DNA of 64,000 nt, from assembly GCA_022729235.1 (NCBI GenBank), contig JALDAJ010000001.1:608001-672000 (forward strand). The letters are read 5' to 3'. This DNA comes from Candidatus Nanohalarchaeota archaeon. Its GTDB lineage: Archaea; Nanohalarchaeota; Nanosalinia; Nanosalinales; Nanosalinaceae. The notes under the pieces were generated by a model, which did no database searches, had not been told where the DNA came from, and saw only the letters and a program-made list of their open reading frames with translations. This document shows positions 10,770 through 19,936 of this stretch, piece after piece; within the stretch, counting starts at the first letter, position 1, and each line of letters opens with the position of its first letter. A program made the position numbers and the translations under genes.

Positions 10770-12512
10770 TCAAAATTCTTTGAGGTCGTTTCCGTCCATG
10801 AAACCTTTGAGGCTCTTCTCTAACTCTTCAACATTTACTCTTACCTGTTCAGTGGAGTCCCTGTCCCGGAGAGTCACGGTCCCGTCTTCCAGGGTCTGGT
10901 GGTCCACGGTCGCGCATATCGGCGTACCGATCTCGTCCTGCCGCCTGTAACGGCGACCGATAGCGCCTGAATCATCATACTTCACGGAGAAACCGCTTTC
11001 TCTTAGGCTCCTGGCGACTTTTCGTGCGCGCTCTCCCATCCCGTCCTTATCCATCAATGGGAATACAGCCACTTCTACAGGTGCGACTTCCGCGGGTAAG
11101 CGGAGAACGGTTCTCTCCTCTCCATCTACTTCGTCTTCCTCAAGGTTATGCGCTAGAACCGTGTAGAGTATTCGGTCGACACCGAACGACGGTTCTACAG
11201 TTTCAGGCATGATATGTTCTCCGGTCTCCTCAACTTCTTTTCGTGTAAATCCTGTTTTCTCCACGGGAACATTTACAGTCTCGCCATCGATTTCCAAGCT
11301 GATGCTTTCCTGCTCCTCGAACCTCTCCGGTTCTTCCTCCGCGATTCTCCCGAGTTCGTCCGCGATATCTGAGGCGCGGTCACCGTATTCAGGTCCAAGG
11401 ACGCTCATGTCTGGACTGACGGTTGCTTTCTCCACGGTCTTGGGCTCGTCGTATGGCTTGAAAACAGTGAAGTCTTCGCCCGAGTGCTCCTGGTGCTTCT
11501 TGAGGTCGTAGCATCCTCTGTACGCGAAACCTGTGATTTCAATCCAGTCACCTCCGACTTCAGATTCGGCGTCCCAGCAGTCGCTCGCGTAGTGCGACCT
11601 CTCGTCCTCCAGGTGCTGCCGGAACCTGAACCGGTCCATATCGATACCTATCCGCTCGTACCACTTCTTTGAGATACCGAGATAGTATGCTATCCAGTCG
11701 CTCGCGACCACGCCGTTTTCGACTGCTTCCGCCACGGTCATCTCGAGTACTTCTCCGCCGTCTTTATCCTGCTCGTTGATAGGGTAAAGGCGGAGCTCGA
11801 CGTCTTCCACGTCCTCCATTTCCGGTTCGTCTTTTTCTGGATCGATAAAGAACTCCAGCTCTGCCTGCGTGAACTCTCTGACGCGGACAATCGATTTCCG
11901 CGGTGATATCTCGTTCCTGTAAGCCTTTCCTATCTGTGTAACCCCGAACGGCAGCTGGTTGCGGGCGTATTCTTTCCACTGAGGGAACTCGACGAAGATT
12001 CCCTGAGCTGTTTCAGGTCGTAAGTAGCCGGGTGAGGAATCTCCTGGACCGATGTTTGTGCCGAACATCAGGTTGAAATCGTCGACTTCCACGTCTGCCA
12101 GTTCCTCGCCGCAGTTCGGACACTGGAGGCTGTTTTCTTCGATTATCTCCATTATCCTATCGGTGGAGAAGCTCTCCGCCTCCTCGATATCCGTGTTATC
12201 CTCGACCAGATGGTCTGCCCTGATGGATTCGCCGCACTCGGGGCATTCTATTATCATGTCGTCGAAGGTCTCAAGGTGCCCGGATGCCTCGAACACGTCT
12301 TCAGGCATGATTGTCGGTGCTTCTATCTCCATGTTGCCTTCCTGGTAGGTGAACCGGTCTCTCCATACATCCTCCAGGTTTCTCTTCAAGGCGGTACCGT
12401 GGGGTCCGAACGTGTAGAAACCGGCTGTACCTCCGTAAATCTCATTGGAGGGAATAAAAAATCCGCGTCTCTTCGCCAGTTCTTTCAGGCTCTGTGTGGT
12501 ATTCTGGGTCAC
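10770..12512 (-). CDS. glyS: Glycine--tRNA ligase (alpha2 type)
   Basis: LRPETAQG, RNEISPR, REFTQAE, EPSFGVDR, IGRRYRRQDEIG. Start re-assigned to GTG 12512 because SD GAGGTG lies 6 nt upstream. Confidence 0.95.
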   Translation of the reverse strand: MTQNTTQSLKELAKRRGFFIPSNEIYGGTAGFYTFGPHGTALKRNLEDVWRDRFTYQEGNMEIEAPTIMPEDVFEASGHLETFDDMIIECPECGESIRADHLVEDNTDIEEAESFSTDRIMEIIEENSLQCPNCGEELADVEVDDFNLMFGTNIGPGDSSPGYLRPETAQGIFVEFPQWKEYARNQLPFGVTQIGKAYRNEISPRKSIVRVREFTQAELEFFIDPEKDEPEMEDVEDVELRLYPINEQDKDGGEVLEMTVAEAVENGVVASDWIAYYLGISKKWYERIGIDMDRFRFRQHLEDERSHYASDCWDAESEVGGDWIEITGFAYRGCYDLKKHQEHSGEDFTVFKPYDEPKTVEKATVSPDMSVLGPEYGDRASDIADELGRIAEEEPERFEEQESISLEIDGETVNVPVEKTGFTRKEVEETGEHIMPETVEPSFGVDRILYTVLAHNLEEDEVDGEERTVLRLPAEVAPVEVAVFPLMDKDGMGERARKVARSLRESGFSVKYDDSGAIGRRYRRQDEIGTPICATVDHQTLEDGTVTLRDRDSTEQVRVNVEELEKSLKGFMDGNDLKEF

Positions 12513-12590
12513 TTTTGACACCTCTGGAAAAGTTGTCGATTAGAAGCCTTAAAAACCGACAGGACGAAAGAGCTAGAACTGGTTAAAGGG

Positions 12591-12674
12591 TTATTCGAAA
12601 CACGTGAAGTGTTTCTCAACGCAACTTCCTGGAGAAAGCTGCGAGAGTCCAAAGTAGCCACCCTTGATTGACAT
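12591..12674 (-). promoter_or_regulatory. glyS leader ORF MSIKGGYFGLSQLSPGSCVEKHFTCFE* with putative +1 frameshift cassette GGT GGC TAC TTT GGA(Gly)
   Basis: Read by hand. The +1 frame is open from 12652 to 12509, and its TGA overlaps the glyS GTG. Confidence 0.7.
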
Positions 12675-12739
12675 AGATATCACAGTTGGTTCTGCTCGTG
12701 GAAAGCTTAAAAACCGTCCGAGTATTACGATGTAATATA

Positions 12740-13927
12740 ATGCCGGGTTCTGGAATGAAGAGTTTGGAAGATGCAGAGTTGGAAGGTAAAAGCGTGGTTC
12801 TCAGGACTGATCTAAACCTTCCTGTCGAGGACGGCGAGCCGCAGAAGACGGTCCGGTTTGAACGCTACATTGAAACAGTGAAGGAGCTCAGTGACGAAGG
12901 TGCGAGGACGATGGTAATCGCGCACCAGGGGAGACCGGCGAGGAAGGATTTCATGTCGCTGGAAAGACACGCAGAACTGATGTCGGAAGAGCTAGGGCAG
13001 GACGTTAACTTCGTACGGAGCTTCTTCGGACCGGAGCTTGGAGATGCAGTCGCCTCGATGGAGGACGGCGATGTAGTACTGCTTGAAAACATACGTTTCC
13101 TCTCCGAGGAGCTTCAAAACTTGCCCTCCGAGAGGCATTCTGATGATTATTTTATTGAGAATCTCTCCAGGTACTTCGATATTTTTGTAGACGATGCGTT
13201 CTCTGCATCACACCGCTCCCACGGATCGATAGTTGGATTCGTACCGCGCCTCGAATCCTATGCAGGACCTGTTATGCAGCGTGAACTGGAGAACTGTGGC
13301 AGGGTAAGAGATGAGCTTGACAATCCGTTGCTGGTTCTAGGAGGGGAGAAACCTTCCGATTTGATAGGTATGATGGAGCAGGTAATTGACCGGGCTGAGA
13401 AAGTACTGCTGGGCGGTATCCCTGGCGAACTTGCACTCAAGCTCCAGGGAAACGATCTCGGCGGGAAATCCGAGTGGATAGAGGAGCAGGGCTTTGACGG
13501 TAAGAGCAAGGAGCTTCAAAGAATCATCGAAGAACACGAGGAAAAGATAGTTCTGCCTGTAGATGTCAGAACGGACTCAGGTAACCACAAGATCGGTGAA
13601 GTCCCGGAAGGAGAGATGACATGGGATATCGGAGAGGAGACGCGGGAAAGGTTCGTGGAAGAGATAGGTGACGCGGAATCGATTGTCATGAAAGGTCCTA
13701 TGGGTGCGTTCGAGGATTATCCTGAGGGCACGCGAGCGGTAATCGATGCGATAGCAGAAAACGATGGCTTTACAGTACTCGGCGGAGGACACACATCTTC
13801 ACTTATACACCGATTCGGTCATGACCTCGACGAGTTCACACACGTCTCCATCGCGGGCGGAGCATTTGTCCGGTACATGAGCGGGGAAGAACTGCCCGCG
13901 GTCGAAGCGCTCAGGGAGTATTCTTAG
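12740..13927 (+). CDS. pgk: Phosphoglycerate kinase
   Basis: RTDLNLP, AHQGRP, LLENIRF, DAFSASHR, GGGHT, SIAGGA. Start is ATG 12740 or 12755. Confidence 0.93.
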   Translation: MPGSGMKSLEDAELEGKSVVLRTDLNLPVEDGEPQKTVRFERYIETVKELSDEGARTMVIAHQGRPARKDFMSLERHAELMSEELGQDVNFVRSFFGPELGDAVASMEDGDVVLLENIRFLSEELQNLPSERHSDDYFIENLSRYFDIFVDDAFSASHRSHGSIVGFVPRLESYAGPVMQRELENCGRVRDELDNPLLVLGGEKPSDLIGMMEQVIDRAEKVLLGGIPGELALKLQGNDLGGKSEWIEEQGFDGKSKELQRIIEEHEEKIVLPVDVRTDSGNHKIGEVPEGEMTWDIGEETRERFVEEIGDAESIVMKGPMGAFEDYPEGTRAVIDAIAENDGFTVLGGGHTSSLIHRFGHDLDEFTHVSIAGGAFVRYMSGEELPAVEALREYS

Positions 13928-13985
13928 GGTCCGGATGTTGCTGACTGTCGAAATATACTTAACGCAGACTTCACAATAATGACGT

Positions 13986-14152
13986 ATGCAGCAAGGTGGC
14001 TGTTTTTGGACTTTTGCATCTGAATGATTTAGACAGCAGTATTTCTATTCCGGGTGGATGTTTTTGGGCCATCTAGTCTTCTAAAGGACAGGTTACGCTT
14101 TTCCCTGAACTATCTCAGAATCTGCTCAGTAAGGGAGCTTTCATGGCTTTAA
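13986..14152 (+). promoter_or_regulatory. Trp leader A: MQQGGCFWTFASE* (13986-14027), with a second cassette PGGCFW in its +1 frame (14050-14067)
   Basis: GGT GGC TGT TTT TGG and GGT GGA TGT TTT TGG lie in successive +1 frames. TATA-like ACTTAA about 25 nt upstream. Confidence 0.6.
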
Positions 14153-14294
14153 TCAATTAAATCGGTTTTTATACACTTCAACATATTTTCTAAGTCTTTT
14201 AGATAGAAATAGTCATTATTCTATCTTTTTAGACTCTAAAAACCTCTAAAAGCTATTTAAAAGTTTTCTAACAACTGGAAAACACGTGATTAAA

Positions 14295-14369
14295 ATGACA
14301 AACGACACACAAGACGAAACACAGGCAGAAGCCCGACAGGGGGGATGTTTTTGGAGAACAAAATCTTGA
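14295..14369 (+). promoter_or_regulatory. Trp leader B: MTNDTQDETQAEARQGGCFWRTKS* with cassette GGG GGA TGT TTT TGG(Trp)
   Basis: TATTTAAA box and GTGAT SD-like sequence upstream. The +1 frame runs to TAG 14406 and overlaps the next ORF. Confidence 0.6.
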
Positions 14370-14389
14370 AGAAGTTGTAAAGGGGGGCA

Positions 14390-14725
14390 TTGCTGGAGCA
14401 GGGTAGAGAAAGGGCTGTTTCGGTAATTGATAACTGTCTAACGATTGATGTAGACTCTTTCGATGAGGAAGTCTATTCAGAGGTTTTTGAGGTGCTGTTT
14501 TCTCCTGAAGAAGGATATCTAAGAGATGTTCCAGAGGACTTCCAATTCCGGCTCAGAAAAATATCGAGGTTCACTGTCGGCTGGGGTACGGAGTACTCGG
14601 AAACATATTCCAATGAACTAACTGGCCGTGATATCCGGGAGATGCAGAGGAAGGCGGTTGAAGAATCGTACACAGTTGGCTATTCCTCTGAAAAGTTCAT
14701 CGAACTGTACGAGGAGGTGATGTAG
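14390..14725 (+). CDS. Hypothetical acidic protein upstream of trpS
   Basis: 111 aa with host-like acidic composition. Weak TTG start. Confidence 0.55.
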   Translation: MLEQGRERAVSVIDNCLTIDVDSFDEEVYSEVFEVLFSPEEGYLRDVPEDFQFRLRKISRFTVGWGTEYSETYSNELTGRDIREMQRKAVEESYTVGYSSEKFIELYEEVM

Positions 14726-14786
14726 TATCGCGGTAAGTGAGAAAGATTCCACCGGATATAAGAGCGCTAGGGAGGAATGATTAACC

Positions 14787-15890
14787 ATGCCAGAGATAGA
14801 TCCGTGGGGAGACGTTGAAGTCGGAGAGTACCGTGAAAAGATGGAGAAGTTTGGTATCGAGCCGATCGAAGAGATAGCAGATAAGCTCCCTGACCACCGA
14901 TACATAAGAAGAGGGATAATCTTCGGTCACCGCGGGATGGACGAGTACCTGGACGCGCTCGACGACGGCGAGGACGTGGCGATGATAACTGGTATAATGC
15001 CGTCCGGCATGTTCCACCTCGGGCACAAGATAGTGGTCGACCAGGTGCTGATGTACCAGGAGATGGGCGCAGACGTAACTCTCACTGCGGCGGACATCGA
15101 AGCGCACAACACCCGCGGTATCTCGCTGGAAGACGCGCGTGAGATGGTTATCGAGCAGTACCTGACCAATTACGTCGCTCTGGGTCTCGACCTGGAGAAC
15201 GTTGATTTCTACTTCCAGAGCCAGGCAGGCAACGACCACCTTGCCCGCTCCAAACTTTTCGCGAAGCACCTGACACGGAACGAGATGGACGCCACCTACG
15301 GAGAACCAAGTCCTGGTAAGATAGCGTCCGCATTAATGCAGTACGCCGACATACTGAGACCGCAGTTCCCGGAGAACGGCGGACCGAAACCAACTGTTGT
15401 TCCTGTTGGTATCGACCAGGACCCTCACATAAGACTGACCCGGGAGGTCGCGCGGAAGGCGTCTCAAGACTTCTACAAGCCCGCATCCATTTACAACAAG
15501 TTCATGCGCGGGCTTCAGGGTGGGAAGATGTCGAGCAGCGATCCGAAGAGCTACATCGCGCTTACAGATTCTGTTGAAGAGGAGAAACAGAAGATCGACG
15601 AGGCGAAGACTGGTGGTCGTGACACGCTGGAGGAGCACCGTGAGAAAGGTGCGGACGTTGAAGAGGACATGGTCTTCGAACTACTTGCTTTCCACCTTAT
15701 CGAGGACGACTCCGAGCTTGAACGTATCCGTGAAGAGTATGAGTCGGGCGAGATGCTGTCCGGAGAACTCAAGCAGATAGCGAAGGAGAAACTGGAGGAG
15801 TTCCTCCTCGCGCATAAAGAGAGGAGAGAAGACGCGCGTGAAGAAGTCGAACAGTTCGTCGAGGAGAACGTAGAGTCAGAACTTGTTTAA
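14787..15890 (+). CDS. trpS: Tryptophan--tRNA ligase
   Basis: TGIMPSGMFHLGH (HIGH), VPVGIDQDPH, KMSSS. Confidence 0.95.
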   Translation: MPEIDPWGDVEVGEYREKMEKFGIEPIEEIADKLPDHRYIRRGIIFGHRGMDEYLDALDDGEDVAMITGIMPSGMFHLGHKIVVDQVLMYQEMGADVTLTAADIEAHNTRGISLEDAREMVIEQYLTNYVALGLDLENVDFYFQSQAGNDHLARSKLFAKHLTRNEMDATYGEPSPGKIASALMQYADILRPQFPENGGPKPTVVPVGIDQDPHIRLTREVARKASQDFYKPASIYNKFMRGLQGGKMSSSDPKSYIALTDSVEEEKQKIDEAKTGGRDTLEEHREKGADVEEDMVFELLAFHLIEDDSELERIREEYESGEMLSGELKQIAKEKLEEFLLAHKERREDAREEVEQFVEENVESELV

Positions 15891-15914
15891 GTCCGGCTCC
15901 AGTATTTCTGACTT

Positions 15915-16610
15915 ATGTTGCCCGAGTTGATACTGCGTGAGGAGGAAGAGGAGAACCTTCCTCTGCTTGCAGTTCTAGGTCTCGCATCAGGTCTGGCAGG
16001 ATTTATTGCTGCAAGAGCTCTTTTTCCATCGCAGATAGATCTTCTTACGGTGATTTTTGCCTCGATACCGCTTGTATACCCTCTCGTGACGTATTTCCTG
16101 GAGCGTGAGAACGAGTCGCGACCCCATCTCCCGGAGATACAGGTCTACGGTTCGATTTTCCTTGGAATGGCGGCAGCATTCTTTATCCTGGGCTTGTATA
16201 ATCCTGAGTTATTCTCATTGCAGAATGCTATTATAGGTGCTGCAGGGCATGCAGTCAATCCAGTATCCTTCACCACGGTCTTATCCAATAACCTGATGGT
16301 GTTCCTGGGGATTCTGGCTGTCGCGTCGATTATAGGGTCGGCAGGAGCCTTTATACTGACCTGGAATGCCTCAGTCTTAGGAGTCTTCATGGCAGGGCTT
16401 GTACGTGACTCTATTCTCATGCCGTTCGCCTACATCCCCCACGCGTCTCTGGAGATGGCAGGGTTCATAGTCGCAGGAGTTGCAGGTACAATGATCTCTG
16501 CCGCAGTCTACAGAGAGCATTTCGATAAGGATACATGGCTCGACCTCTCAAAGCTGGTCGCCACGGGTGTTGGACTGATAGTCATCGCGGCGGTGCTGGA
16601 GACTGCGTAG
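15915..16610 (+). CDS. SpoIIM/DUF95 family membrane protein
   Basis: Multi-TM, with NNLMV, WNASVLG, PHASLEMAGF and AAVLET. Confidence 0.75.
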   Translation: MLPELILREEEEENLPLLAVLGLASGLAGFIAARALFPSQIDLLTVIFASIPLVYPLVTYFLERENESRPHLPEIQVYGSIFLGMAAAFFILGLYNPELFSLQNAIIGAAGHAVNPVSFTTVLSNNLMVFLGILAVASIIGSAGAFILTWNASVLGVFMAGLVRDSILMPFAYIPHASLEMAGFIVAGVAGTMISAAVYREHFDKDTWLDLSKLVATGVGLIVIAAVLETA

Positions 16611-16641
16611 ATATTAAAATCTGTGGTACAAGAAGAGAGTT

Positions 16642-16698
16642 ATGTCACCATCCGAAGCACAGGGAACACTGAAGGGTGGACGTTTTTTCCGCCTGTGA
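16642..16698 (+). promoter_or_regulatory. pheS leader ORF MSPSEAQGTLKGGRFFRL* with putative +1 frameshift cassette GGT GGA CGT TTT TTC(Phe)
   Basis: TATA-like ATTAAAA about 25 nt upstream. The +1 frame is open from 16685 to 16798, and its TGA overlaps the pheS GTG. Confidence 0.72.
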
Positions 16699-16794
16699 AA
16701 GGCAGATTAACAGCTCTATTTCTGGATTGGTTTTTTCGAGGTCTCGGACAGGTATCGCTCAGATATTAAAGTTTAATTTGGGAGGTGTAAACCT

Positions 16795-18186
16795 GTGAGA
16801 CTTTCAAGCCAGTCAATACAGGTTCTGGAAGAACTGAGAGAACAGAGCCCACGCACGGTCGAAGATCTGGAAAAAGAGGGATACGACCAGTCGATGGTTC
16901 ACCGTGCCGCGATGGAACTTGAAGAAAAAGGAATTGTTAACTACAGGGAGGAGGAAGAGGTAGAATGGGTCATAACTCCTGCCGGCGAAGAAGTAATTCA
17001 AGAAGGCTCGCCCGAGCACCAGCTAATAGAGAGGCTTGCGGATGGAGCTGTACCGCTCTCCGAACTTGAAGATCTCGACCTGGATGTCGCGCTTGGAAAG
17101 GCGCGGGAGAAGGGATGGGTCCGTATCAAGGAGGGCGAGGTCTCGCTTACCGAACAGGGACGGCAGGGTCTCGGCTCGGACCGTGTTCAAAACAAGTTAA
17201 AGGACCAGGAATACGACGAAGAGGTCCGTGAGAGAGGGCTGGTCGCGCCGCAGGAAAGAACTGAACGAATACTGGATTTGACTGGTGAAGGAGAAGCCAT
17301 AGATACAGGAGAGCTAGGAGAGGAGTTCAACGTCGAGGCGCGGGTGAAAACACCGCGGACAGGTAAGAAACATTTCTACCGCGAGATAATGGACTACGCC
17401 CGCCGTGTGTGGAAAGACATGGGCTTCGAGGAGATGAGCGGTGACTACGTCACCTCCGGACTGATGAACTTCGACGCGCTTTACATCCCGCAAGACCACC
17501 CTGCCAGAGAGCTCCAGGACTCGTTCTTCATGGAGACTCCGGCGAAAACAGATTTATCCATTTATGGGGGAAAGGTGCAGGAAGTGAAAGACGTCCACGA
17601 GTTTGGTGGTGATGCCGGCGGTAAGGGATGGCAGTACGATTGGTCGCGTGAAGACGCGGAAAGAAACGTGCTGAGAACACATACAACTGACGTTTCCGCG
17701 AAGAGGCTCCACGAGATGGAGATTAACGAGGAGGAGCTACCGAAAAAGTTCTTCTGTCTTGGTAGAGCGTTCAGGAATGAGACGGTTGACAGGACTCACA
17801 ACGCAGAGTTCTACCAGACCGACGGTATCGTCGTAGGAAAAGACCTGAGCTTCCGCAACCTGAAAGGTTACCTGAGCGAGTTCTTCGAGAAGATGGGTTA
17901 CAGCGAGTTCCGGCTTATCCCCTCCTACTACCCCTACACGGAGATGAGCGTAGAGGTACAGGTCTGGGACGATGAAGACGAGGAATGGCTCGGGATGGGT
18001 GGAGCAGGTATGTTCCGCCCGGAAGTTGTGAAACCGATGCTGGGCTTCGAGGCGACAGTACTGGCATGGGGTCTAGGAATCGGGAGGATAGCCATGATAA
18101 ACGCCGAACTCAACGATATAAGAGAGCTTTACAGGAACGATATCGAAATCCTGGAACAGACACCTGTATGGAGGCCTGATCAGTAA
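16795..18186 (+). CDS. pheS: Phenylalanine--tRNA ligase alpha subunit
   Basis: NFDALYIPQDHPARELQD, LRTHTT, FRNETVDRTH, YYPYTE, GMFRPE. SD GGAGGTG. Confidence 0.95.
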   Translation: MRLSSQSIQVLEELREQSPRTVEDLEKEGYDQSMVHRAAMELEEKGIVNYREEEEVEWVITPAGEEVIQEGSPEHQLIERLADGAVPLSELEDLDLDVALGKAREKGWVRIKEGEVSLTEQGRQGLGSDRVQNKLKDQEYDEEVRERGLVAPQERTERILDLTGEGEAIDTGELGEEFNVEARVKTPRTGKKHFYREIMDYARRVWKDMGFEEMSGDYVTSGLMNFDALYIPQDHPARELQDSFFMETPAKTDLSIYGGKVQEVKDVHEFGGDAGGKGWQYDWSREDAERNVLRTHTTDVSAKRLHEMEINEEELPKKFFCLGRAFRNETVDRTHNAEFYQTDGIVVGKDLSFRNLKGYLSEFFEKMGYSEFRLIPSYYPYTEMSVEVQVWDDEDEEWLGMGGAGMFRPEVVKPMLGFEATVLAWGLGIGRIAMINAELNDIRELYRNDIEILEQTPVWRPDQ

Positions 18187-18286: not shown

Positions 18287-19936
18287 GTGCCTCACGTAAA
18301 AATAGACAAGAGAGAGTTCGATGAACTCGTCGGTAGAGAGGTCGATGAAGAACTACTGTACGAGAAGGCTTCTTTCCTCGGCGTCCACTGGAACCATGAA
18401 GAGGGTCCAGAATGGGATGTAGAAGTCTATCCAAACCGACCTGATTTACTCAGTGTAGAAGGCTTGGCTCGTGCGTACAGAGGTTTCTTCGGCGTGAAGA
18501 CTGGGTCGGAGAGTTACACTCCTTCAGGAGGCTCCATTGAGGTCGATATCGATTCTTCAGTCGAGGAAGTAAGACCTCACATCGCCTGCGCAGTCGTGAG
18601 GGATGTTGATGTATCAGAAAAGATACTGAACGGCTGGATACAGCTACAGGAGAAGCTCCACGAGTCGATGGGGCGGAAGAGGGATAAACTGGCGATAGGT
18701 CTTCACGACCTTGGACAGGTTGAGCCACCGTTCACCTACAGGGCGGTGGAGCCGGATAGAGTATCATTCACTCCTCTCGAACATGACAGGGAGATGCAGT
18801 TAGGGGAGATACTGGATGAGCACGAGAAGGGGCAGGAATACGCGTGGATACTCGAAGACGAGGACAGATACCCGGTGATAGAAGATTCGGAAGGAAGAGT
18901 TATCTCTTTCCCTCCTATAATCAACAACCAGCTGACCGAGGTAACAGCCGGGACAAGCGACATATTCATCGACGTGACTGGAAAGGATCGCAGGACAGTA
19001 CTTAAAGTACTAAACATCCTCACCACGGCTCTCTCCGAGAGGGGAGGTTACGTGGAAACGGTACTGGTCAACGGAGAGGAGATGCCTGACCTGGAACCTG
19101 ATGAATGGAAACTAGACCCGGAATATTTCCGGGACATCTCTGGTCTCGAACTTGATGACAGTCAAATCATCGAACGGCTGGAGAAGATGAAGTTCGGGGC
19201 GGAGAAGAAAAACGATGCTATAGAAGTCAGGGTCCCGGCTTACAGGAACGACGTGATGCACCAGTACGACCTGATAGAGGACGTGGTGATCGCACACGGC
19301 TACGACAATATAGAACCGGAGATACCTGAGATCGACCAGGTCGCAGAGGAAAGACCTGTCGAGGATTACACGCGTATAATGAGAGATATACTACAGGGTA
19401 CGGGGGCGCTGGAAACTCATACCTATGTGCTCTCCAACCGCGAGAAACTGTTCCACAGGATGAACCTTGAGGGGGAAGAGATCGCAGAGATGTCGAATGC
19501 GTTGACAGAGGACTACACCGCGGTAAGAAACTGGCTCCTTCCCTCCTTGATGAATGTGCTTCGGAGGAACAGGCACCGATCCTACCCGCAGAAGTTCTTC
19601 GAGGTCGCCGATGTCTCGGTGCTGGACGACTCTGCAACAGGCGCGTCCAACAGGAGAAAGCTGGCGTACGTCCACTCAGGCAACAGCGCGGATTATACAG
19701 ATGTCCGGCAGGTACTCCAGGTGCTGGAACGTGATCTTGGAGTTGAGTTCCGTATAGATTCTGGATCAGGAAACTGCTTCGACCCTGAACGCTCCGGCGA
19801 CATCTACCTGGGAGAGGAAAAGATAGGTATTATAGGTGAGTTCTCCAGCAGTGTCATAGAGAACTGGGACCTGGACCGCGGCGTTGCGGGCTTCGAGCTG
19901 GACGTGGAGAAATTGCTGGAGATCATCAGGAACTAG
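18287..19936 (+). CDS. pheT: Phenylalanine--tRNA ligase beta subunit
   Basis: PNRPDLLSVEG, QEKLH, SFPPIIN, DLIEDVVIAHGY. Confidence 0.95.
   Translation: MPHVKIDKREFDELVGREVDEELLYEKASFLGVHWNHEEGPEWDVEVYPNRPDLLSVEGLARAYRGFFGVKTGSESYTPSGGSIEVDIDSSVEEVRPHIACAVVRDVDVSEKILNGWIQLQEKLHESMGRKRDKLAIGLHDLGQVEPPFTYRAVEPDRVSFTPLEHDREMQLGEILDEHEKGQEYAWILEDEDRYPVIEDSEGRVISFPPIINNQLTEVTAGTSDIFIDVTGKDRRTVLKVLNILTTALSERGGYVETVLVNGEEMPDLEPDEWKLDPEYFRDISGLELDDSQIIERLEKMKFGAEKKNDAIEVRVPAYRNDVMHQYDLIEDVVIAHGYDNIEPEIPEIDQVAEERPVEDYTRIMRDILQGTGALETHTYVLSNREKLFHRMNLEGEEIAEMSNALTEDYTAVRNWLLPSLMNVLRRNRHRSYPQKFFEVADVSVLDDSATGASNRRKLAYVHSGNSADYTDVRQVLQVLERDLGVEFRIDSGSGNCFDPERSGDIYLGEEKIGIIGEFSSSVIENWDLDRGVAGFELDVEKLLEIIRN

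Follow-up and report, generated by a model that had tools for sequence, protein, structure and literature searches.

We analysed a 64,000-nucleotide stretch of the genome of a Candidatus Nanohalarchaeota archaeon (contig JALDAJ010000001.1, here C1, positions 608001–672000 of this 1.03-Mb single-contig genome; hereafter the window) and found that short leaders near the aminoacyl-tRNA synthetase genes glyS, pheS and trpS carry a sequence cassette, typically GGTG[G/A]N-YRY-TTT-X, in which the codon X specifies the amino acid of the synthetase concerned. The cassette system is real, widespread and strongly constrained, and very probably constitutes a new kind of amino-acid-sensing control. The reading that we favour, with a probability of about 0.8, is that a +1 frameshift at the hungry codon X, assisted by an internal Shine-Dalgarno (SD) sequence, would be followed by translational coupling to the next gene, by in-frame entry into a gene, or by attenuation.

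The five cassettes of the window lie where a preliminary description of this DNA had placed them, and the short frame-0 open reading frames (ORFs) are as reported there. The glyS and pheS loci are arranged as follows.

10770–12512 (−): glyS, encoding GlyRS (Pfam)
12509–12652 (−): glyS +1 frame of 47 codons, with its TGA overlapping the glyS start GTG at 12512
12591–12674 (−): glyS leader ORF of 27 amino acids (aa; MSIKGGYFG...), with a TATA-like tract about 25–33 nucleotides (nt) upstream
12648–12662 (−): Gly cassette, GGT GGC TAC TTT GGA
16642–16698 (+): pheS leader ORF of 18 aa (MSPSEAQGTLKGGRFFRL)
16675–16689 (+): Phe cassette, GGT GGA CGT TTT TTC
16685–16798 (+): pheS +1 frame of 37 codons, with an internal TATA and SD and with GTGA on the pheS start
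16795–18186 (+): pheS, encoding PheRS alpha (Pfam)
18287–19936: pheT, 3' of pheS

The lengths claimed earlier for these two +1 frames were confirmed, as was their ending in GTGA on the synthetase start, and Pfam assignments bore out the proposed identities of the downstream genes (GlyRS, TrpRS and PheRS alpha/beta). Comparison of orthologous N-termini placed the glyS start at GTG 12512, and the GTG at 12521, further upstream, belongs to its SD. The cassette was present in 25 of the 27 glyS orthologs with upstream sequence (30 were fetched), and in 3 of 30 pheS loci, whose leaders of 120, 78 and 102 nt each end in NTGA. The arrangement expected for termination-reinitiation, a stop at about −8 to +10 nt and often an SD, was found here, and the SD was gained along with the leader: it precedes pheS at 3/3 leader-bearing loci and 0/27 leaderless orthologs. 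A TATA-like tract lies 25–36 nt 5' of every leader ORF in the window, and a second one lies within the glyS and pheS leaders. As the internal TATA is common to leader-bearing and leaderless pheS loci, a basal promoter has probably been retained inside the pheS leader, and the caution already voiced about internal TATA tracts stands, since these boxes are conserved in leaderless orthologs. No terminator-like sites were found on the coding strand of the window leaders (the accompanying sigma-70 scan is uninformative for archaea). A phosphoglycerate kinase gene (12686–13927) is divergent from the glyS leader, and the TATA-like tracts of the two overlap near 12705–12715.

Within the window a loose form of the pattern was only mildly enriched (14 matches versus 7.5 +/- 2.6 expected, with 14 reached by 2 of 100 shuffles), so that significance rests on the genome and phylum counts. 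A filtered scan of the genome gave 12 matches; the reversed genome, filtered in the same way, gave 0. Ten of the 19 synthetase loci of this genome have a cassette, always cognate, and nine do not. Eight are directly coupled (Gly GGA, Phe TTC, Val GTA, Ser TCC, Thr ACC, Leu CTA, class II Lys AAG and Cys TGT), and His and Trp cassettes stand at the head of operons containing hisS and trpS. No cassette was seen before tyrS, ileS, argS, lysS-I, alaS, aspS, gltX, metS or proS of this genome, nor, in five other complete genomes, before ileS, aspS or leuS (0/5 each).

We then consider the 70 Nanohalarchaeota genomes of the phylum survey, in which the strict pattern RGGTGGHYRYTTT gave 269 matches in 62 genomes, as opposed to 88 for the reversed pattern used as background; 259 distinct strict matches were retrieved, 28 of them outside any short ORF. 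The prediction that X would match the synthetase held in 131 of the 132 cassettes lying within 330 nt of a synthetase gene, for eight synthetases (Cys 5, Phe 3, Gly 28, Ser 22, Thr 32, Val 26, Trp 1 and Tyr 14), and cassettes farther upstream of synthetases were cognate in 19/19 cases. Gene starts could be assigned automatically for 122 of the 132, leaving out 10. The +1 frame was open to within 15 nt of the synthetase start in 118/122, again as anticipated, compared with 11 for the +2 frame and none for frame 0; the +1 stop fell between −17 and +11 nt from the start in 120/122, with an NTGA overlap in 39. A frame-0 ATG was present in 131/131 cognate leaders (2 and 7 for the other frames), two codons before the cassette in 80 of them, and A/T content peaks about 36–25 nt 5' of this ATG. 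Among nanohaloarchaeal thrS loci 18 of 23 have the cassette (25 were fetched), and in one genome proS is headed by a Pro cassette; the nearest relatives of the ThrRS of the window's genome carry the label Nanohaloarchaea. Two mismatches were noted in the searches as a whole: an Ile codon before trpS (L049) has no leader context and is antisense within a GlyRS-like ORF, and TTT TTA before tyrS (L546) apparently contains one extra T, with the +1 frame closed.

The cassette had been proposed as GGN GGN NNN TTT X; the TTT and the cognate X were upheld, but the SD proved to be GGTG[G/A] and not GGNGG, and YRY holds at every spacer codon. At the second codon Gly, Glu, Asp and Val all occur with GGTG retained, which argues that the constraint acts on the RNA, fitting the tail of the 16S rRNA. 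This tail ends in GATCACCTCC, and the internal SD is complementary to it. Calculated cassette/16S duplexes ranged from −3.8 to −10.8 kcal/mol, with one register in 19/24 tested, ending 2–5 nt before the P-site codon; as the tail was offset by one base in this calculation, only energies and relative register are used. Forms lacking the T of GGT were at background (44 versus 109 reversed) and real at 2/30 loci examined. Replacement of TTT by TTC was also at background (37 versus 69 reversed), and none of 31 such matches (30 loci) lay in a leader before a synthetase, whereas TTC makes up 73% of Phe codons in long ORFs. A broader variant pattern was too noisy to use whole (584 matches, of which 30 loci and 20 chosen regions were inspected). 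In a set of 199 cognate cassettes, which is biased since it was partly collected with the TTT pattern, the P-site codon was TTT, CCC, CCT, CTT or GTT in 196, codons able to re-pair in the +1 frame (often at 2/3 pairs only), and GCG, GAT and ATT were the three outliers. As re-pairing requires, a pyrimidine followed GTT in 4/4 variants and A followed CTT in 4/4; CTT occupies the P site in four thrS leaders, two of which have TAT CTT.

We propose the following order of events. A leaderless transcript would begin at or near the short ORF, which mostly reads ATG AAR and then the cassette, and the ribosome would arrive at GGTG[G/A]N-YRY-TTT-X. With the tRNA for X charged, X would be read in frame and translation would stop a few codons on, too distant for reinitiation at the gene; with this tRNA scarce, the A site would stay empty, the 16S tail would bind GGTG[G/A], and the P-site tRNA would slip by +1. 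The +1 frame could then stop on the start of a synthetase or enzyme gene and couple to it (glyS and pheS), could be the protein itself (direct entry), or could close with more cognate codons, with a hairpin or U-rich gap after them, in the manner of an attenuator (Trp leader 1). Tandem cassettes would demand several consecutive shifts, and a retained internal promoter would give basal leaderless expression. In Haloferax, according to the accessible parts of two reports, termination-reinitiation operates at overlaps of −4, −1 and −8 nt with the SD used at reinitiation, and coupling is 40–60% at 13–14 nt and all but vanishes at 23 nt (PMC10666635, PMC6728339). The +1 stops of the cassette leaders fall inside this working range and the frame-0 stops outside it; because coupling in H. 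volcanii is about zero at 23 nt, no coupling is expected from a frame-0 stop 40 nt or more upstream, whereas it is expected from the +1 stop. The difference from Haloferax is that coupling in the cassette system would depend on the frame switch.

The shifted frame itself appears to be read. In coupled leaders, cognate codons were fewer in the +1 frame than in base shuffles (129 observed versus 273 expected), although by this measure Gly and Phe showed no depletion. Relative to other leaders, coupled +1 frames lacked Tyr (0/421 versus 107/4063) and Cys codons, and Thr (2.4% versus 6.3%), Ser, Val, Gly and Phe were lower. The opposite was seen at the ends of attenuator-type +1 frames, which were enriched in Trp (24 versus 4.7 expected) and Ile/Leu/Val codons (192 versus 77). 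Frame 0 has no run of cognate codons, usually just one; runs occur in the +1 frame of Ile/Val leaders, and Trp leaders have a single Trp there, within the last 12 codons in 23 of the 28 uncoupled ones. The motif [YF]xxI[SAC][SAT][VIL]xxx[SA]W closes 20 distinct Trp leaders, and its third codon positions are degenerate, that is, they show synonymous variation in the shifted frame; this motif, except for its upstream Y/F, had served as a search pattern. At three loci, that of the window included, the conserved peptide is reachable only after two shifts. Long ORFs make up the +1 frame at 26 loci, with the first Met mostly late or missing; examples include an M20 peptidase (L222), a GNAT protein (L274), an aminotransferase, TrpD (L254) and an AbrB/MazE-like protein. 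A hairpin over the +1 stop (z below −2) was found in 10 of the 26 Ile/Val leaders folded (7 others, with no SD found, were not folded), and hairpins that would sequester the SD were not a consistent feature of Ile/Val leaders.

Frameshifting is what we infer from these constraints, as the best-supported mechanism, and several observations weigh against it. After a slip on TTT followed by G or A only 2/3 pairs would form, which applies to 131/199 cassettes, and the variants GCG-T, GAT-C and ATT-C re-pair poorly or not at all. The gap of 5 nt between GGTG and the P site is at the short end of the initiation range, still within it (mode 7; 5 nt in 6/50). At several Halovenus-type loci the +1 frame runs 20–160 nt into thrS before it stops, a distance too great for tight coupling; most of the expression may come from internal promoters; and the surveyed genomes share kinship, so the counts are not independent. 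Finally, GTG occurs in the +1 frame of 198/199 cognate cassettes, as the caveat about a GTG start within the SD had foreseen. This last point is central to the main rival, a reading without slippage, in which the ribosome would stall at X, lose its peptidyl-tRNA by drop-off or rescue, and reinitiate at the GTG of GGTG, with the same +1 frame and logic. Such a restart would account for the P-site variants unable to re-pair, for the rarity of GTG-less forms and for the keeping of GTG when the first G changes (CGT GGT, AGT GAT). We nevertheless consider it unlikely, for it predicts neither homopolymer P-site codons (TTT, CCC) nor the absence of TTC nor the GTT-pyrimidine and CTT-A pairings. In 80 of 131 leaders the ATG is separated from this GTG by 7 nt, with no SD upstream of the GTG, which cannot serve as SD and P-site codon together; two GTG-less cassettes are still coupled (L423 and window position 14340); and some leaders have 15–25 codons ahead of the cassette, a length expected to resist drop-off.

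Classical attenuation, in which the stall at X would alter RNA folding or termination and the open +1 frame would be incidental, could draw on the hairpins, with pyrimidine tracts after them, that span the +1 stop in some of the Ile/Val leaders, on the T4+ runs after Trp leaders (61 versus 36 expected) and on FttA/aCPSF1, which this genome encodes. Incidental frameshifting has a precedent in pheL, as reported in the accessible part of a review (PMC5009743). Classical attenuation is nonetheless very improbable: it does not account for frame-specific endings at the start in 118/122 cases over leaders of 72–330 nt, for shifted-frame peptide conservation with synonymous changes, for the depletion and enrichment of cognate codons, or for long +1 ORFs without an early ATG. 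T4+ runs at coupled leaders were near expectation (68 versus 57), and the earlier suggestion that ribosomes shield these leaders from FttA was not sustained. For a T-box-like RNA that would bind uncharged tRNA directly, the resemblance is one of sequence only (AAGGGTGG, similar to the T-box consensus) together with the cognate codon. No Rfam match was found in 12300–17000 at E up to 1, X lies 7 nt 3' of TGG and not in a stem far upstream, the reading-frame constraints are strict, the variants GGTGAA, GGTGAC and GGTGTC have no TGG, and the base after TGG is A or C regardless of the tRNA; we regard this possibility as hardly credible. Chance, or a promoter motif acting at the DNA level, would fit the roughly two-fold enrichment in the window and the strict matches outside short ORFs, and is just as implausible given the cognate codons, the empty reversed-genome scan, the +1-frame endings and the frame-0 ATG counts. 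Slippage at the hungry codon, assisted by the SD, remains the simplest account.

The Trp region of the window combines several of these outputs.

13986–14027 (+): Trp leader 1 ORF (MQQGGCFWTFASE)
13995–14009 (+): Trp cassette 1, GGT GGC TGT TTT TGG
14053–14067 (+): Trp cassette 2, GGT GGA TGT TTT TGG, in the +1 frame of cassette 1 and without an ATG of its own
14063–14152 (+): frame after two +1 shifts, ending in the conserved peptide YLRICSVRELSW (TGG at 14144–14146) and then TAA
14153–14294 (+): AT/U-rich gap with a TATA-like tract before leader 3, a candidate termination zone and second promoter
14295–14369 (+): Trp leader 3 ORF (MTNDTQDETQAEARQGGCFWRTKS)
14340–14354 (+): Trp cassette 3, GGG GGA TGT TTT TGG, the rare GTG-less form; its +1 frame ends at 14406
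14390–14725 (+): 111-aa orphan ORF, starting at a TTG that precedes the cassette 3 +1 stop by 14 nt
14787–15890 (+): trpS, encoding TrpRS (Pfam), 3' of the orphan ORF, with its own SD and TATA-like tract

Direct coupling of these cassettes to trpS was not supported: the chain of cassettes 1 and 2 ends at 14152, and cassette 3 would couple to the orphan ORF. This ORF had no homolog among proteins of 61–195 aa and no Pfam family. A suspected indel in the G run near 14382–14387 was not indicated, the contigs of run X1 being identical over 12300–17000 (this run may be the source of the DNA, so the comparison is not independent). Leader 1 may act by attenuation, perhaps via FttA, as two shifts there lead to a third Trp codon and then to the U-rich gap; this is the weakest step of the model. 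In a same-genus genome (L093:5143) the second Trp cassette has degenerated, and with the frame compensated one shift is enough to reach the conserved Trp peptide. A second copy of the three-cassette Trp leader (C1:831474–832338, L008) fronts an unknown 151-aa ORF, not trpS.

Cassettes are also found at genes other than synthetases. Across the phylum, Trp cassettes head trpE and trpD (by Pfam) and trpB/trpC-like genes (by eye), and Ile cassettes head a PALP-family (threonine) dehydratase gene. Tandem Ile/Val and Leu cassettes (C1:457145; L066, L097, L098, L306) have a +1 frame whose last part is an Ile/Leu/Val tract, often folded into a hairpin across its stop, and a C/A-rich short ORF comes next; the genes behind them encode PALP dehydratase, chorismate mutase, prephenate dehydratase/dehydrogenase and aminotransferase. 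In the His operon (C1:884417–886928, L007; L657, L660) two serial His cassettes lead into an AbrB/MazE-like ORF, followed by a third cassette-like site, a 252-aa ORF and hisS. The +1 frame of a Tyr cassette at C1:968181 (−), away from tyrS, is an AbrB-like protein without its own ATG. A Lys cassette lies 5' of endonuclease V in two genomes (L117, L221). LysRS genes of class II and of a class I-like type occur side by side in the window's genome (C1:951592 (−) and 939467 (−)), with the cassette at the class II gene only. Putatively Trp- or His-controlled genes at L222, L274, L282 and L276 encode GNAT, M20 peptidase or desuccinylase and, as judged by eye, an enolase-like ORF, a set reminiscent of N-succinyl-amino-acid salvage pathways. 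In 6/6 genomes checked (C1:797524 (−), L003; L444–L448) metS lacks an in-frame ATG upstream of the first conserved motif and instead has an SD followed by ATT/ATC-type codons, with an in-frame GTG within the SD at two loci; a non-AUG start as a separate Met-related control is possible. ARAGORN found only 15 tRNA genes in this genome and none for Phe, Trp or Thr, which were probably overlooked and not absent.

The search extended from Nanohalarchaeota to 151 Halobacteria and one metagenome pattern. In the Halobacteria sample the pattern occurred in 51 of the 151 genomes, and 17 of 29 loci examined lay before thrS, all with ACA. A leader encoding Met-Val/Ala-Gly-Val-Arg-Phe-Thr preceded thrS at 11/55 halobacterial loci, with 4 further degenerate forms. 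Transfer of thrS and its leader from nanohaloarchaea to Halovenus was rejected, as the proteins nest in Halobacteria (quick midpoint-rooted tree with 78 rows, from which 3 partial loci were omitted). The metagenome pattern gave 120 matches, 26 of them before a synthetase and 25 of these cognate, the other 94 being mostly unrelated chance matches; they include an AAT cassette before AsnRS, with nearest named relatives labelled Aenigmarchaeota and Bathyarchaeia, and an ACC cassette before an archaeal-type ThrRS. Viral contigs gave 8 matches, none within a short ORF. We consider it likely, though slightly less so than the mechanism, that this is a general archaeal regulon. One interchangeable hungry-codon +1 cassette, single or serial, would then govern synthetases, AbrB-like regulators and enzymes of biosynthesis and salvage, and would do so in Nanohaloarchaeota, in many Halobacteria and in two or more further archaeal lineages, with many mis-called starts and with genes made only as trans-frame proteins in starvation.

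Each part of the proposed system has relatives. Bacterial attenuators (trp, ilv, pheA, pheST) sense tRNA charging through cognate codons in a leader and control synthetase or biosynthesis genes, and leaderless poly-Cys ORFs reportedly act as leader-peptide attenuators in mycobacteria. The Ile/Leu/Val tracts and hairpins of the archaeal leaders look similar, but the archaeal cassette has one cognate codon that would act by a change of frame, the tracts lie in the shifted frame, and the coupled leaders show no terminator. The T-box likewise combines one module and a variable codon with the same classes of target genes; the archaeal cassette differs in depending on translation and frame, and has no stem I or antiterminator. 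The closest mechanical parallel is prfB (RF2), for which the accessible part of a 2016 review describes an internal SD, one spacer codon, a slippery P site (CUU U, in a minority UUU U) and a slow A site (PMC5009743). With the archaeal cassette it would share these parts, the short frame-0 ORF and the feedback. The archaeal A site differs in being a cognate sense codon that varies with the gene and not UGA in the RF2 gene, and the cassette usually stands ahead of a distinct gene, in a leader coupled to it, serves at least 13 amino acids and is used in tandem. In ermCL, as treated in the same portion of that review, a ketolide-induced leader frameshift sends ribosomes into the intergenic region and activates the next gene (PMC5009743); the trigger there is a drug acting at one locus through RNA unfolding, whereas the archaeal trigger would be uncharged tRNA. 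Programmed frameshifts known in archaea comprise the −1 shift of fucA1, haloviral tail genes and magnesium chelatase, and the accessible part of that source names no cellular +1 and no amino-acid-sensing case (PMC8211752). We found no description of the present system in open-access PMC and bioRxiv, subscription journals lying outside this coverage; small-ORF tables of archaeal ribosome profiling may list some of the leaders without such an interpretation.

How archaea match the expression of synthetases and amino-acid pathways to tRNA charging is, to our knowledge, largely open. The accessible part of the 2016 review states that no example was known of hungry-codon frameshifting giving a starvation-specific functional product (PMC5009743); if our reading is true, the cassettes would be such a case, at about 200 loci, and archaeal ribosomes would perform SD-stimulated +1 shifting. 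As Halovenus species carry the thrS leader, the system can be tested in cultured Halobacteria; serine hydroxamate is known to act on H. volcanii (PMC7261190). The cassette would also amount to a readable code, in which the codon after TTT names the amino acid that is sensed and so would assign unknown genes to amino-acid regulons.

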